Positions 307 to 23,139 of a stretch of DNA of 23,525 nucleotides are shown here, in pieces. The first letter of the stretch is position 1, and every line of letters starts with the position of its first letter. The notes under the pieces were generated by a model that did no database searches, was not told the origin of the DNA, and saw only the letters and a program-made list of their open reading frames with translations. Source of the DNA: a virus (Duplodnaviria; Heunggongvirae; Uroviricota; Caudoviricetes); the IMG/VR virus record IMGVR_UViG_2526164619_000010, positions 1 through 23,525 of that record, one strand, 5' to 3'. A program made the position numbers and the translations under genes.

Positions 307-556
307 GAGATAACCCGGAAAATTCAGACTTAGTACTATTATGTGATAAAAGTCACATTTTTCCACATTGGATGAGCCAGTCAAGACTCAATCATTTTTT
401 GAACAAATAGATAAATTTTGCGCAACGGCAGTGAATACAGGAAAAATCGTTTTGAGCGATTTTATTTATCTTTGATATCGGCTTTATTAATTCATTTAAT
501 CGGTAATGCTGCCAACTTACTGATTTAGTGTATGATGGTGATTTTAAGGTGCTTGC

Positions 557-832
557 ATGGCTTCCATTTCCATCAGATGTCCTTCCTGCTCCGCTACTGA
601 AGGCGTGGTGCGTAACGGCAAAAGCACTGCCGGACATCAGCGCTATCTCTGCTCTCATTGCCGTAAAACATGGCAACTACAGTTCACTTACACCGCCTCT
701 CAGCCCGGTACGCACCAGAAAATCATTGATATGGCCATGAATGGCGTCGGATGTCGCGCCAGTGCACGCATTATGGGCGTTGGCCTCAACACGGTTTTAC
801 GTCACTTAAAAAACTCAGGCCGCAGTCGGTAA
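557..832 (+). CDS. insA: IS1 InsA (transposition repressor / N-terminal part of transposase)
   Basis: 91-aa [46 protein letters not shown]..., recognisable as IS1 InsA with zinc-finger cysteines; stop TAA 830-832. Confidence 0.92.
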
Positions 833-1254
833 CCTCGCGCATACAACCGGGCAGTGATGTGATTGTCTGCGCTGAAATGGACGAACAGTGGGGCTACGTC
901 GGTGCTAAATCACGTCAGCGCTGGCTGTTTTACGCGTATGACAGGATACGGAGGACGGTTGTGGCGCACGTCTTCGGTGAACGCACTCTGGCCACACTGG
1001 AGCGTCTTCTGAGCCTGCTGTCGGCCTTTGAGGTCGTGGTATGGATGACGGATGGCTGGCCGCTGTATGAATCACGCCTGAAGGGAAAGCTGCACGTTAT
1101 CAGCAAGCGTTACACTCAGCGCATTGAGCGACATAATCTGAATCTGAGACAACATCTGGCAAGGCTGGGACGGAAGTCACTGTCGTTCTCAAAATCGGTG
1201 GAGCTGCATGACAAGGTCATCGGGCATTATCTGAACATAAAACACTATCAGTAA
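751..1254 (+). CDS. insB: IS1 InsB (expressed as InsAB' transposase by -1 frameshift at the A6C motif 808-814)
   Basis: 167-aa ORF ending ...[21 protein letters not shown], the IS1 InsB sequence; overlaps insA 3' end in the -1 frame; slippery TTAAAAAAC at 806-814. Confidence 0.88.
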
Positions 1255-1446
1255 GTTGGAGTCATTACCCAAAACGTGAAGTAATATTTCAGCTGGCGAA
1301 TAATATCCGACAGTAATCACTCTGCGCAATAGCGCGGCCTTTTTCATATTGCGGGCTGTTGTCTATCTTCTGCCATTGTCCTGTAACTTCCGGACTTCAG
1401 CCCGCTCCTCATTTTACTCACAATATTATCCAGGCCGGGAGGATTC

Positions 1447-21113: not shown

Positions 21114-21811
21114 TGCAGGATATTCGCGAAGAAAGGCTGAACGAGTCGGTTAAGTCAGAGCAGTCACCGCGGGTGGTACTCTGGGAAATCGACCTGACGG
21201 TACAGGGTGGTGAGCGGTATTTTTTCTGTAATGAGCTGAATGAAAAAGGGGAGCCGGTCACCTGGCAGGGGCGTAAGTATGAGGCATACCCGATTGACGG
21301 CAGCGGCTTTGAGATGAACGGCCGGGGCAGCAGTGCCAGACCGTCGCTGACGGTGTCCAATCTGTTCGGTCTGGTCACCGGGATGGCGGAAGACCTGCAG
21401 AGTCTGGTGGGGGCCACGGTGGTCCGCCGCCGGGTGTATGCCCGTTTTCTGGATGCGGTGAATTTCGTTGCGGGCAATCCGGAGGCGGACCCGGAGCAGG
21501 AGCTGAGTGACCGCTGGGTGGTGGAGCAGATGTCGCAGCTGACAGCCATGACGGCCTCGTTTGTGCTGGCTACACCGACCGAGACGGACGGGGCGCTGTT
21601 TCCCGGTCGTATCATGCTGGCGAACACCTGTATGTGGACCTACCGCTCTGATGAGTGTGGTTACACGGGCGGGGCTGTGGCGGATGAGTTCGATAAACCC
21701 ACCACGGATATCCGTAAGGACAGATGCAGCAAGTGCATGCGCGGGTGTGAACTGCGCAGGAATGTCGGCAATTTTGGCGGTTTCCTTTCCATTAATAAAC
21801 TTTCGCAGTAA
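21113..21811 (+). CDS. L: minor tail protein L
   Basis: 232-aa ORF MQDIREERLNESVKSEQSPRVVLWEIDLTVQGGERYFFCNELNEKGEPVTWQGRKYEAYPIDGSGFE...NVGNFGGFLSINKLSQ, near-collinear with lambda gpL including the cysteine cluster; TGATG overlap with M. Confidence 0.9.
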   Translation: MQDIREERLNESVKSEQSPRVVLWEIDLTVQGGERYFFCNELNEKGEPVTWQGRKYEAYPIDGSGFEMNGRGSSARPSLTVSNLFGLVTGMAEDLQSLVGATVVRRRVYARFLDAVNFVAGNPEADPEQELSDRWVVEQMSQLTAMTASFVLATPTETDGALFPGRIMLANTCMWTYRSDECGYTGGAVADEFDKPTTDIRKDRCSKCMRGCELRRNVGNFGGFLSINKLSQ

Positions 21812-21821
21812 ATCCCGGTTT

Positions 21822-22565
21822 ATGACACAGACTGAATCAGCGATTCTGGCGCATGCCCGGCGGTGTGCGCCTGCGGAGTCGTGCGGCTTCGTGATAAGCA
21901 CGCCGGAGGGGGAGCGGTATATCCCTTGTGTGAATATTTCTGCAGAGCCGGAGGCGTATTTTCGTATCGCACCGGAAGACTGGCTGCGGGCAGAGATGCA
22001 GGGGGAGATTGTGGCACTGGTCCACAGTCATCCCGGTGAGCTGCCCTGGCTGAGCGAGGCTGACCGGCGGCTGCAGATAAAAAGCGCACTGCCCTGGTGG
22101 CTGGTCTGCCGGGGGGAAATTCATAAATTCCGCTGTGTGCCACATCTGACAGGACGGCGCTTTGAGCACGGGGTGACGGACTGTTACACGCTGTTCCGGG
22201 ATGCATACCATCTGGCGGGAATTGATATGCCGGATTTTCATCGCGAGGATGACTGGTGGCGCAACGGCCAGAACCTGTACCTGGACAATATGGCGGTCAC
22301 CGGCTTTTACCGGGTGCCCCTGTCCTCTGCACAGCCGGGCGATATCCTGCTGTGCTGCTTCGGCGCATCGGTGGCTAATCATGCCGCCATTTACTGTGGC
22401 AACGGTGAACTGCTTCACCATATTCCTGAACAACTGAGTAAACGGGAGAGGTATTCCGAAAAATGGCAACGACGAACGCATTCTGTCTGGCGTCACCGCC
22501 ACTGGCACACATCTGCCTTCACGGGGATTTACAACGATTTGGCCGCCGCCTCAGCCTGTATGTGA
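21822..22565 (+). CDS. K: tail assembly protein K (JAB/MPN-like HSHP motif plus NlpC/P60-like C-terminal part)
   Basis: 247-aa ORF from ATG 21822 (track ORF starts further upstream at 21561): MTQTESAILAHARRCAPAESCGFV...EIVALVHSHPGELPWLSEADRR...GVTDCYTLFRDAYHLAGIDMPDFHR..., as in lambda gpK. Confidence 0.9.
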   Translation: MTQTESAILAHARRCAPAESCGFVISTPEGERYIPCVNISAEPEAYFRIAPEDWLRAEMQGEIVALVHSHPGELPWLSEADRRLQIKSALPWWLVCRGEIHKFRCVPHLTGRRFEHGVTDCYTLFRDAYHLAGIDMPDFHREDDWWRNGQNLYLDNMAVTGFYRVPLSSAQPGDILLCCFGASVANHAAIYCGNGELLHHIPEQLSKRERYSEKWQRRTHSVWRHRHWHTSAFTGIYNDLAAASACM

Positions 22566-23139
22566 ACACGGCAGCGGAAGCCATTCGCGCCCTGTCGATG
22601 CAGATGCCGGGCTTTCGCCTTCAGATGAACGAAGGCTGGTACCAGATACGTATTGCCGGTGAAAACACGGCACCGGAGGTGGTGTACGCCCGCCTTCACG
22701 AACAGCTGGGTGAGGGAACGGTCATCCACATTGTGCCGCGACTGGCCGGGGCCGGAAAGGGTGGACTGCAGATTGTGTTGGGGGCGGCAGCCATCGTGGG
22801 CTCTTTCTTCACTGCCGGGGCATCAATGGCGTTATGGGGTTCAGCCCTGGCAGCCGGTGGTTTTTCTGCCACCACGATGCTGTTTTCACCTGGAGCCAGC
22901 ATCTGGGCGGTGTGGCCCAGATGCTGGCCCCGAAGGCAAAAACACCGGATTACCGCGCAACGGATAACGGCAGACAGAACACGTACTTTTCCTCGCTGGA
23001 TAACATGATTGCCCAGGGGAACCCGATGCCGGTGCCTTACGGGGAAATGCTGGTTGGCTCCCGTCGTATATCCCAGGACATCAGCACCCGTGATGAAGGC
23101 GGGGGCGGAAAGGTCGTGGTTATCGGGCGACAGGGATAA
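22463..23139 (+). pseudogene. I: tail assembly protein I, frameshifted by a 1-bp deletion near 22890-22900 (start codon uncertain)
   Basis: N-terminal part (22463-23008 frame, ...LHGDLQRFGRRLSLYVNTAAEAIRALSMQMPGF...IHIVPRLAGAGKGG...) and C-terminal part (22834-23139 frame, ...GGVAQMLAPKAKTPDYRATDNGRQNTYFSSLDNMIAQGNPMPVPYGEMLVGSRRISQ...) both resemble lambda gpI but sit in different frames. Confidence 0.75.

Follow-up and report, generated by a model that had tools for sequence, protein, structure and literature searches.

A dead lambdoid prophage remnant in the Shigella flexneri K-315 draft genome: genuine decay and a probable layer of pyrosequencing under-calls

Contig AKMY01000042 of Shigella flexneri K-315 carries in its final 23.5 kb a lambdoid prophage late region that is Stx-phage-like, with an HK97-type head and a lambda-type tail, and many of its genes appear to be broken. 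The question raised by this locus is whether the breaks are mutational decay or errors of the draft sequence. The stretch of 23,525 nucleotides analysed here (the window) had been described from its sequence as bearing three IS insertions, three nonsense codons, and four single-base deletions, which were attributed either to decay or to homopolymer errors. By comparison with independent assemblies, we conclude with high confidence that the lambdoid prophage in the window is a dead remnant, in which real decay by IS elements, deletions, and stop codons is accompanied by a layer of 454 under-calls found only in K-315. Both attributions were right for different lesions: the stops, the IS elements, and the multi-base deletions are real, and the breaks in the portal and tnpC runs are very probably artefacts.

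The gene order, determined by tblastn against an annotated intact prophage (L001) and by Pfam, NCBIfam, and PHROG matches, is terS, terL, prohead protease/capsid, HK97 portal, connector, head closure, gp10, gp17, major tail, G/T, tape measure, M, L, K, I, and J, which is that of an HK97-type lambdoid late region. The DNA is 92-97% identical to that of intact prophages and Stx phages with the same gene order. The contiguous integrase, immunity, replication, Q, and lysis functions and both attachment ends of a complete prophage were not found; the left flank of the remnant is chromosomal drpB DNA joined via IS1, the lysis cassette is absent, and on an independent contig the right end of the prophage lies at potB. 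Scans of the window for tRNAs and Rfam families gave no matches.

The comparison set comprised at least eight independent short-read assemblies of the locus (GCA_049894805, GCA_026136285, GCA_026022055, and several ERR Logan assemblies), which match the window at 99.93-99.97% identity and differ from it by 0-4 substitutions per 4-10 kb. They have in common with it the nonsense codon and a 19-bp deletion in terL, the stops in the portal and tape measure genes, the deletion in gene I, and five of the six IS/phage junctions, and they carry every IS junction that they reach. The three stops, the deletions in terL and I, and the IS junctions that were reached recur base for base in independent assemblies and are therefore real, and the bulk of the damage is common to other isolates. 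The earlier expectation that the stops are safer than the frameshifts is thus borne out. It is hardly credible that all point lesions, including the stops, are assembly errors in a late region that is essentially intact except for its IS elements: the assembly demonstrably holds indel errors, but the stops and the multi-base deletions lie outside homopolymers, and the three stops and the 19-, 15-, and 4-bp deletions are exactly reproduced in short-read assemblies from different projects.

The left part of the window contains the following features.

1-501, minus strand: chromosomal flank with drpB (1-282, minus), the yedJ-drpB region outside the prophage, 99-100% identical to the drpB region in 4,911 E. 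coli genomes
502-1269, plus strand: IS1, 768 bp, with insA (557-832) and insB' (751-1254); Pfam InsA and IS1 DDE matches, E 1e-20 to 1e-74
1447-3408, plus strand: intact SASA/DUF1737/DUF6645 carbohydrate esterase, a NanS-p-type sialate O-acetylesterase cargo gene, 653 aa; Pfam, full length, 99.1% identical to the L001 protein
3675-4937, minus strand: IS600 (IS3 family), with orfA (4571-4873) and orfB (3717-4535); 99.3% identical to annotated IS600, HTH_Tnp_1 and rve Pfam matches
4938-5191, plus strand: HNH endonuclease remnant without its first 37 codons; tblastn aligns residues 37-122 only

The element at 502 is an IS1 by its length of about 768 bp, its terminal inverted repeats (ends GGTAATGCTGCC... 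and ...GGAGTCATTACC), and its insA and insB' ORFs. An 8-9 bp target-site duplication was not found in its flanks (CATTTAATC on the left and CAAAACGTG on the right), which fits a rearrangement or deletion junction or a join made by the assembler across a repeat; the element is still an IS1. It connects drpB DNA to mid-phage DNA 177 bp upstream of the esterase gene, and the whole left arm, the early half of the prophage, has been lost from the locus, a loss that had escaped the sequence-only reading. IS1 marks the point beyond which the early half is missing. Its right junction is also present in an independent contig (L029); the left link from drpB through IS1 to the phage is attested solely by the K-315 draft assembly, across a multi-copy repeat.

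IS600 was assigned to the IS3 family by its high identity and by the helix-turn-helix of orfA and the rve integrase core of orfB. Its 3-bp target duplication was not found in the flanks, which read ATC and AGC. As measured against L001, about 3.1 kb of phage DNA is gone at this site, namely the 3' end of the DUF1378 gene, DUF826, holin, lysozyme, Rz, and the 5' 112 nt of the HNH gene, so that IS600 occupies the place where the lysis cassette disappeared. Both junctions are present in independent contigs (L029 and L009). The loss of the entire lysis cassette had also been overlooked. Plasmid IS600 matches that seemingly reached 13 nt into the HNH flank were spurious on inspection.

The head genes are as follows.

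6041-7683, plus strand: terminase large subunit (terL) pseudogene, with a real TGA stop and the 19-bp deletion
7746-9668, plus strand: prohead protease-major capsid fusion gene, frame open; the exact 640-aa product occurs in independent assemblies
9880-11243, plus strand: HK97-type portal gene (portalA), with a real nonsense TAG at 10048-10050 and T6 at 10428-10433
11240-12301, plus strand: second 'portal' ORF (portalB), intact, 353 aa, starting in a 4-bp ATGA overlap with portalA
12298-14549, plus strand: head-tail connector, head closure, gp10-like, gp17 tail completion, and major tail genes, all intact by tblastn against L001

In terL, the CGA of the relatives is TGA at 7217-7219, and the frame is broken at 7400/7401 by the 19-bp deletion, which lies between CGGAA direct repeats; both lesions are identical in five independent contigs (L009-L013). 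The capsid gene has lost 15 bp (5 aa), in frame, between GCNCTGG repeats at 9074/9075; this deletion is real and had not been noticed before. Both the 19 bp and the 15 bp were removed by slippage between short direct repeats, and the three stop codons arose by substitution. The portal stop at 10048 is TAG in the window and TCT or GCA in relatives; in independent assemblies, the gene consists of a 56-aa fragment and an unbroken 386-aa ORF. The run at 10428-10433 is T6 in K-315 and SRR066117 only, and T7 elsewhere. Downstream, portalA and portalB overlap at 11240 by 4 bp (ATGA), as is normal for this phage family; the overlap does not count as a lesion. PortalB contains a 162-bp tandem repeat at 11465-11835. 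We considered whether the portal frameshift is a feature of the family, as PGAP labels the gene 'frameshifted' even in intact relatives, and rejected this explanation: the family feature is the overlap at 11240, and the T run lies at another site, 10428. IMG/VR was scanned for a variant with portalA and portalB fused through a change at the A6 tract, and all 17 of 17 matches had the same length as the A6 junction of the window; where phage records do show fused forms, the difference lies in a G5/G6 run.

The tail region contains the third IS element.

14564-14798, plus strand: tail assembly chaperone G, ending after codon 78, cut at the deletion adjacent to ISEc49
14799-17561, minus strand: ISEc49 (IS66 family), with tnpC (15159-16759), tnpB (16766-17158), and tnpA (17145-17474); 99.5% identical over 2,766 bp to annotated ISEc49, TnpB_IS66 and DDE_Tnp_IS66 Pfam matches
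17562-20779, plus strand: tape measure gene without its first 8 codons, with a real nonsense change CAG to TAG at 20045-20047 (relatives read CAG)
20772-22565, plus strand: minor tail genes M (20772-21113), L (21113-21811), and K (21822-22565), intact by tblastn against L001
22562-23139, plus strand: tail assembly gene I, its frame broken at 22902/22903 by a real deletion of 4 bp (GATA/GATT)
23376-23525, plus strand: start of tail tip gene J, cut by the contig end

The tnpA-tnpB-tnpC set and the near-identity place this element in the IS66 family as ISEc49. A 525-bp deletion beside its left end has removed T completely, together with the remainder of G and the first 8 codons of the tape measure gene. 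In a sister lineage (L015, ERR832484), the ancestral simple ISEc49 insertion is preserved, with intact G and T, CAG at 20045, and the 8-bp target duplication TCAAAATT on both sides of the element; only the right copy survives in the window, the left being missing because the 525 bp adjoining the left end of ISEc49 are deleted. ISEc49 landed first in the 5' end of the tape measure gene, and an IS-adjacent deletion later removed the 525 bp in the lineage of the window. The three IS elements reported earlier are all present, but none is a simple insertion; each stands at a deletion or rearrangement.

The tape measure stop is identical in L014, L017, L018, L021-L023, and L027, and the L022 contig was seen in 14 samples. 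The gene I region shows zero indels relative to the independent contigs L014 and L018. Additional frame errors suspected in the tail genes of K-315 contigs 71 and 38 (ORFs of 185 and 212 aa) were start choices of the gene caller, and the DNA up to 23525 equals the independent consensus; contig 38 has one A6 to A5 contraction in J, outside the window. The K-315 assembly distributes the segment from ISEc49 to J over three contigs. Of the three stops noted earlier (TGA at 7217 in terL, TAG at 10048 in portal, and TAG at 20045 in the tape measure gene), all recur in independent assemblies. The four frame breaks (terL, portal, I, and tnpC) also exist in the window, but not all as single-base deletions, since those in terL and I are of 19 bp and 4 bp.

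The other two breaks lie in homopolymer runs, as had been stated, and are T7 to T6 changes at 10428 and 16539. The indel comparison with independent assemblies covered 20,836 bases of the window, and the only indels of the window were seven 1-bp deletions, with zero insertions.

3410-3415, plus strand: A6, A7 in independent assemblies (L029 and L030); intergenic, assembly-specific contraction
3713: T7 to T6 inside IS600; independent assemblies read the longer run
5353-5359, plus strand: A7, where five independent assemblies have A8; assembly-specific contraction in the gap between the HNH and terS genes
7723-7728, plus strand: T6, where five independent assemblies have T7; in the gap between the terL and capsid genes, and the exact start of an SRR066117 contig
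10428-10433, plus strand: T7 to T6 in portal, absent from independent assemblies
13776-13781, plus strand: T6, T7 elsewhere; intergenic in the connector-major tail block, assembly-specific contraction
16539-16544: T7 to T6 in tnpC, absent from independent assemblies

Contractions, all of one base, were found at 7 of 15 runs of at least 7 nt and at 0 of 316 runs of 4-6 nt (Fisher P = 8e-11). All seven affect A/T runs that are 7-8 nt long elsewhere, and G runs were affected in 0 of 3 cases. At every site, each NCBI or ERR-derived contig that covers it has the longer run. The tnpC gene, split by the T6 (A6 on the coding strand), has T7 in every other copy examined, namely L017 (which has the same junction of IS and tape measure gene), L015, and the second ISEc49 copy of K-315 itself on contig 71, which has a different contraction elsewhere.

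Outside K-315, the contracted alleles recur solely in two sets assembled by Logan, SRR066117 and SRR066119. In the latter, a contig with the same T6 allele terminates in 25 nt of the 454 Titanium paired-end linker and 23 nt of 454 adaptor B, each an exact match over its length. The SRR066117 contig breaks exactly at a contracted T run and differs from the window by one substitution (8962). These two sets are probably runs of K-315, the assembly of which was probably made from 454 data alone; a literature search on the K-315 sequencing platform and on the SRR066117 run found nothing. The indels are confined to homopolymers, increase in frequency with run length, and are absent from assemblies of other data, as expected of 454 artefacts, and the portal and tnpC frameshifts in T runs are very probably 454 sequencing errors. 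Pyrosequencing would have under-called about half of the A/T homopolymers of at least 7 nt by one base, and two of the seven under-calls would have fallen in coding sequence and produced the portal and tnpC 'frameshifts'.

Location in long runs cannot by itself separate artefact from biology, since slipped-strand mutation also favours long runs. All the lesions, including portal, tnpC, and the other five contractions, might therefore be genuine and private to the K-315 sub-lineage, for example if strands slipped where mismatch repair was deficient. Indels of 1 bp naturally concentrate in homopolymer runs, such mutations would be neutral in a region already non-functional, and SRR066117, with its portal T6 and one SNP relative to the window, could be a sister isolate that truly shares T6. 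However, the seven contractions stand against zero expansions and only 2-4 private substitutions in 20.8 kb, and other isolates of the lineage differ mutually by substitutions without 1-bp run changes. Contraction of about half of the long A/T runs genome-wide would probably give hundreds of indels and hit essential genes. With the contracted alleles limited to K-315 and the two SRR sets, the linker and adaptor in one, and the contig break at a contracted run in the other, we regard a genuine mutational origin as very improbable and prefer under-calling. About 10 kb of K-315 core DNA (the yedI-drpB and selB-yibF flanks compared with E. coli) contains only two runs of at least 7 nt, of which 0/2 are contracted, a sample with no statistical power. 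One E. coli comparator in this comparison had a selA frameshift of its own.

In agreement with the sequence-only reading, no lesion interrupts the esterase gene (1447-3408) or the small head and tail genes, and every assembly of the lineage, the independent ones included, has the same intact esterase protein. The accompanying claim that all the damage falls on propagation genes is not supported as a selective pattern. Propagation genes make up about 88% of the coding DNA in the window, and five random lesions would miss the esterase with P = 0.53; the sparing of the cargo is thus at chance level and has no statistical support. Adaptive domestication, in which selection stripped the particle-forming and lysis functions, placed the lesions non-randomly, and kept the esterase, would agree with the intact esterase across the lineage, with the clean absence of the lysis cassette, and with the recognition of NanS-p-type esterases as prophage cargo in STEC (PMC10462455). 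However, the capsid gene, which is as long as the esterase gene, and portalB likewise keep open frames, and the sister lineage L015 gained its own tape measure stop (19970) after the common IS insertion, as expected of neutral decay. At such divergence, selection tests have no power. The presence of an intact esterase in every isolate is compatible with domestication and is no test of it. We consider adaptive domestication unlikely, and it is similarly doubtful that the remnant persists in the Shigella lineage as a domesticated esterase carrier expressed from the IS1-proximal region.

The real lesions are three IS-associated structural lesions, three nonsense codons, two out-of-frame deletions, and one in-frame deletion; the number of real 1-bp frameshifts in the prophage is very probably zero. 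These lesions alone are lethal many times over, and the prophage cannot propagate whether or not the doubtful sites are counted. The verdict is therefore independent of the portal and tnpC run calls, and the earlier caution that artefacts should be excluded before calling the prophage dead is moot. The value of the result is mainly practical. In the K-315 draft, and probably in others that the same centre produced at that time, a 1-bp 'frameshift' in an A/T run of at least 7 nt needs a second data set before it is scored as a pseudogene; stops and multi-base deletions in the K-315 draft are trustworthy. For counts of Shigella pseudogenes and prophage decay, the locus loses two of ten claimed lesions and gains larger ones, namely the losses of the left arm and the lysis cassette, the 525-bp deletion, and the in-frame capsid deletion.

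False frameshifts at homopolymeric tracts in pyrosequenced draft genomes have been discussed (PMC4746626). The contractions in K-315 resemble 454 under-calls in being 1-bp length errors, restricted to long homopolymers, dependent on run length, and absent with other chemistry, and in the linker and adaptor found in a related read set; they differ in being contractions only, and in A/T runs only.

The defective lambdoid prophages of E. coli O157 Sakai with an Sp6/Sp9/Sp10/Sp12-type head (Asadulghani et al. 2009, PMC2669165) have the same late region, with terS-terL, the protease-capsid fusion, and then portal, and their genes for packaging, morphogenesis, and lysis were inactivated in the same ways, by inserted IS elements, deletions, and point mutations. 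Several of them were still inducible, or were packaged with the help of other prophages (PMC2669165). In contrast, the K-315 remnant lacks the entire early half and the lysis cassette and is bounded by IS1. As it has no contiguous integration, replication, and lysis functions, it is probably not rescuable in the way that the Sakai prophages are.

Genome reduction in Shigella is IS-driven, by expansion of IS1, IS600, and IS66-family elements with adjacent deletions and rearrangements. The K-315 locus is similar, with three different IS elements within 17 kb, each without its target duplication and at a deletion or rearrangement junction, and with a left flank at drpB, whereas the right end of the prophage is at potB. 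By this comparison nothing is unusual here: the remnant is an ordinary, textbook IS-riddled defective prophage of an already known kind, and the sister lineage L015 still shows the stage in between, in which the element is simply inserted and flanked by its 8-bp duplication.

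The window corresponds to positions 37214-60738 of contig AKMY01000042.1, reaching the contig end, and exact-protein matches assigned it to Shigella flexneri K-315 (GCA_000268165.1), a strain isolated in Bangladesh (PMC6397287). In megablast searches of complete E. coli genomes and phages, it was 92-97% identical to lambdoid prophages and Stx-converting phages over their late region; no single record covered more than 77% of it, because three stretches of the window are IS elements. We used the intact annotated locus of strain 09-02E (L001) as the template, backed by another relative (L002) and phage Lys8385Vzw (L003). 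The order is esterase, [lysis cassette missing], HNH', terS, terL, protease-capsid fusion, small ORF, portalA, portalB, connector, head closure, gp10, gp17, major tail, G', [T missing], tape measure', M, L, K, I, and the start of J. The point lesions were found by carrying the reading frames of the reference over to the window.

Lesions and IS elements in the window
502-1269, IS1 with the expected ORFs and ends; target duplication absent
3675-4937, IS600; 3-bp duplication absent
7217, terL stop TGA (CGA in relatives)
7400/7401, terL frame break, 19-bp deletion between CGGAA direct repeats
9074/9075, capsid gene, in-frame 15-bp deletion between GCNCTGG repeats
10048, portal stop TAG (TCT or GCA in relatives)
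10428, portal frame break, T7 to T6
14799-17561, ISEc49 (IS66 family), 99.5% identical to an annotated copy
16539, tnpC frame break, T7 to T6 (A6 on the coding strand)
20045, tape measure stop TAG (CAG in relatives and in the sister lineage, L015)
22902/22903, I frame break, 4-bp deletion

The sequence-only reading, which had listed three IS insertions, three nonsense codons and four 1-bp deletions, was largely right: all the IS elements, the internal stops in terL, portal and tape measure, and the four frame breaks were found. Its generalisation to single-base loss was wrong, as this held for portal and tnpC only; the terL and I deletions, neither of which lies in a homopolymer, were described so because each shifts the frame by a net -1. 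The capsid deletion was absent from that list.

Same-locus contigs were retrieved by exact-sequence look-up of the lesion-bearing products, and NCBI assemblies (GCA_049894805.1, GCA_026136285.1, and GCA_026022055.1) and Logan assemblies (ERR6004966, ERR200337, ERR6006326, ERR6006273, ERR6004833, and ERR6006294) were compared; one tail contig was common to 14 samples. These independent contigs stop inside the IS elements at the window's own junctions and are 99.93-99.97% identical to it, and small differences (G/A at 10550, an ACC repeat unit in terS, and C/T at 20803) indicate that they represent more than one genotype. In terL, all of them contained the stop and the 19-bp deletion; all also had the portal and tape measure stops and the deletions of 15 bp in the capsid gene and 4 bp in I. 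On this sequence evidence, the three stops, already thought less likely to be artefacts, and the three multi-base deletions are real and inherited. In two Logan contigs (L016 and L019), terL, or the esterase gene, is fused directly to a 223-aa tape measure C-terminal ORF; these joins are probably assembly-graph chimeras through repeats, a real deletion variant being another possible explanation.

The portal T6 was absent from all independent (NCBI/ERR-derived) contigs, in which the portal gene was called as a 56-aa fragment and, after it, an uninterrupted ORF of 386 aa. The tnpC run was T7 in L017 (a contig with the same ISEc49/tape measure junction), in L015, in two plasmid copies, and in a second K-315 copy of ISEc49 on contig 71, which has a T6 to T5 change at another site instead. 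Over 20,836 non-overlapping bases compared with the independent contigs, the window's only indels were seven 1-bp deletions (3410, 3713, 5353, 7723, 10428, 13776, and 16539), with no insertions and two to four private substitutions. Each site is an A or T run of length 7 or 8 elsewhere. Runs were changed in 7/15 cases at length 7 or more versus 0/316 at length 4-6 (Fisher P = 8e-11), and in 7/12 A/T runs versus 0/3 G runs. Outside the window, gene J on K-315 contig 38 (L026, position 8778) has a K-315-only A6 to A5 contraction that splits it into 917-aa and 228-aa ORFs; J is intact (1157 aa) in independent assemblies.

The contracted alleles recurred in only two other places, both Logan contigs. 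L051 (SRR066117) spans 7723-11650, has the portal T6 and one SNP relative to the window, and its start coincides exactly with the T run contracted at 7723. L058 (SRR066119) spans 12235-13798 and is identical to the window, with T6 at 13776. Its first 25 nt are an exact match to the terminal part of the 454 Titanium paired-end (loxP) linker, and its last 23 nt to 454 adaptor B in reverse complement. The short alleles were thus seen nowhere except in K-315 and the SRR066117 and SRR066119 read sets, the latter demonstrably pyrosequencing data; both sets are presumably linked to K-315. We infer 454 under-calling as the source of the portal and tnpC frameshifts and of the five run contractions that are silent. 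There is a small probability that all seven are real private slippage mutations in K-315, which would need an indel-to-substitution ratio of 7:2-4, with contractions alone, and, extrapolated to the whole genome, hundreds of indels of this sort. Genuine decay and homopolymer error had been proposed as alternatives; both apply, and the question is settled cleanly by lesion class, the stops and multi-base deletions being real and the portal and tnpC T6 runs the likely artefacts. The prophage is dead irrespective of the doubtful sites.

All three IS elements are present, but none is a simple insertion. To the left of IS1, positions 1-501 are chromosomal DNA of the drpB region, which occurs in 4,911 E. 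coli genomes, and the prophage right end lies at potB in an independent contig; IS1 would thus mark the site where a rearrangement or deletion separated the phage from its entire early half. Another explanation is that drpB and the phage were joined across the multi-copy IS1 repeat by the draft assembler; independent confirmation covers the IS1/phage junction only (same-locus contig L029). IS1 also lies beside drpB in the unrelated E. coli TA8571 (L005, 4500-4560), one base off the window junction (490-510), suggesting that the site is a hotspot for IS1 or that the insertion is old and shared. IS600, whose two junctions were each recovered in independent contigs, replaced about 3.1 kb (L001 4855-7998): the end of DUF1378, DUF826, holin, lysozyme, Rz, small ORFs, and the first 112 nt of HNH.

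L015 (Logan contig, ERR832484; 1159-6368) has a simple ISEc49 insertion at tape measure codon 9, with an 8-bp duplication (TCAAAATT), intact G and T genes, and an intact 533-aa tnpC, and preserves the ancestral state of the site. Relative to it, the window kept the right junction and lost 525 bp adjoining the left end. At 14985, in the non-coding left end of ISEc49, G4 of the plasmid copies and L015 is G2; as both K-315 copies share it, this may be a genuine variant of the IS in this lineage, not an error. The ISEc49-to-J segment (14799-23525) occurs on three K-315 contigs, including contig 71 (L024, 163731-179638) and contig 38. Contigs 42 and 71 end at one identical base in J, the IS on contig 71 is joined to selAB-yibF-rhs chromosome, and positions 18092 and 18306 set the window copy apart from the other two. 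The segment is either truly multi-copy or reflects the assembler's repeat placement.

The frame change at 11240 was ruled out as a lesion: intact relatives, induced phages included, have the same ATGA overlap between portalA (454 aa) and portalB. Most related records (BP-4795, Lys8385Vzw, and 1717, as well as the window at 11205-11245; L001 14300-14365 was compared) have this two-ORF form, whereas a few (phage 2851, Stx2a_WGPS6, YYZ-2008, and vB_EcoS-569R3) have one fused ORF, 1 nt longer, which accounts for the PGAP label 'frameshifted'. In phage 2851 (L049, 1650-1720), the one fused record in which the position was read, the extra base lies in a G run (G6 versus G5) located about 20 nt upstream of the portalA stop codon. 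Real polymorphism, regulated frameshifting, and sequencing error in the fused records are all possible. PortalB, for which no Pfam or NCBIfam match was found, contains a 162-bp (54-aa) tandem repeat (11465-11835; 2.3 copies, 88% identity), at which short-read contigs end; its length in relatives (245-461 aa) suggests copy-number variation.

The lesions had been said to hit only propagation genes and to spare the esterase cargo. Chance suffices for this pattern: of the window's 16.5 kb of coding DNA, about 88% belongs to propagation genes, and the probability that five random disruptive hits would all land in these genes and leave the esterase untouched is P = 0.53. Open frames are likewise kept by the capsid gene and portalB, both near the esterase in size. 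L015 retains CAG at 20045 and has its own tape measure stop, at window-equivalent 19970, acquired after the shared ISEc49 insertion, as neutral decay following a first inactivating hit predicts. These data provide no evidence for or against selective sparing of the cargo. As a defective prophage the remnant is ordinary: such prophages are expected in IS-rich Shigella, and it is of the same kind as those catalogued in O157 Sakai (PMC2669165), overlaid by what are probably platform-specific homopolymer errors.
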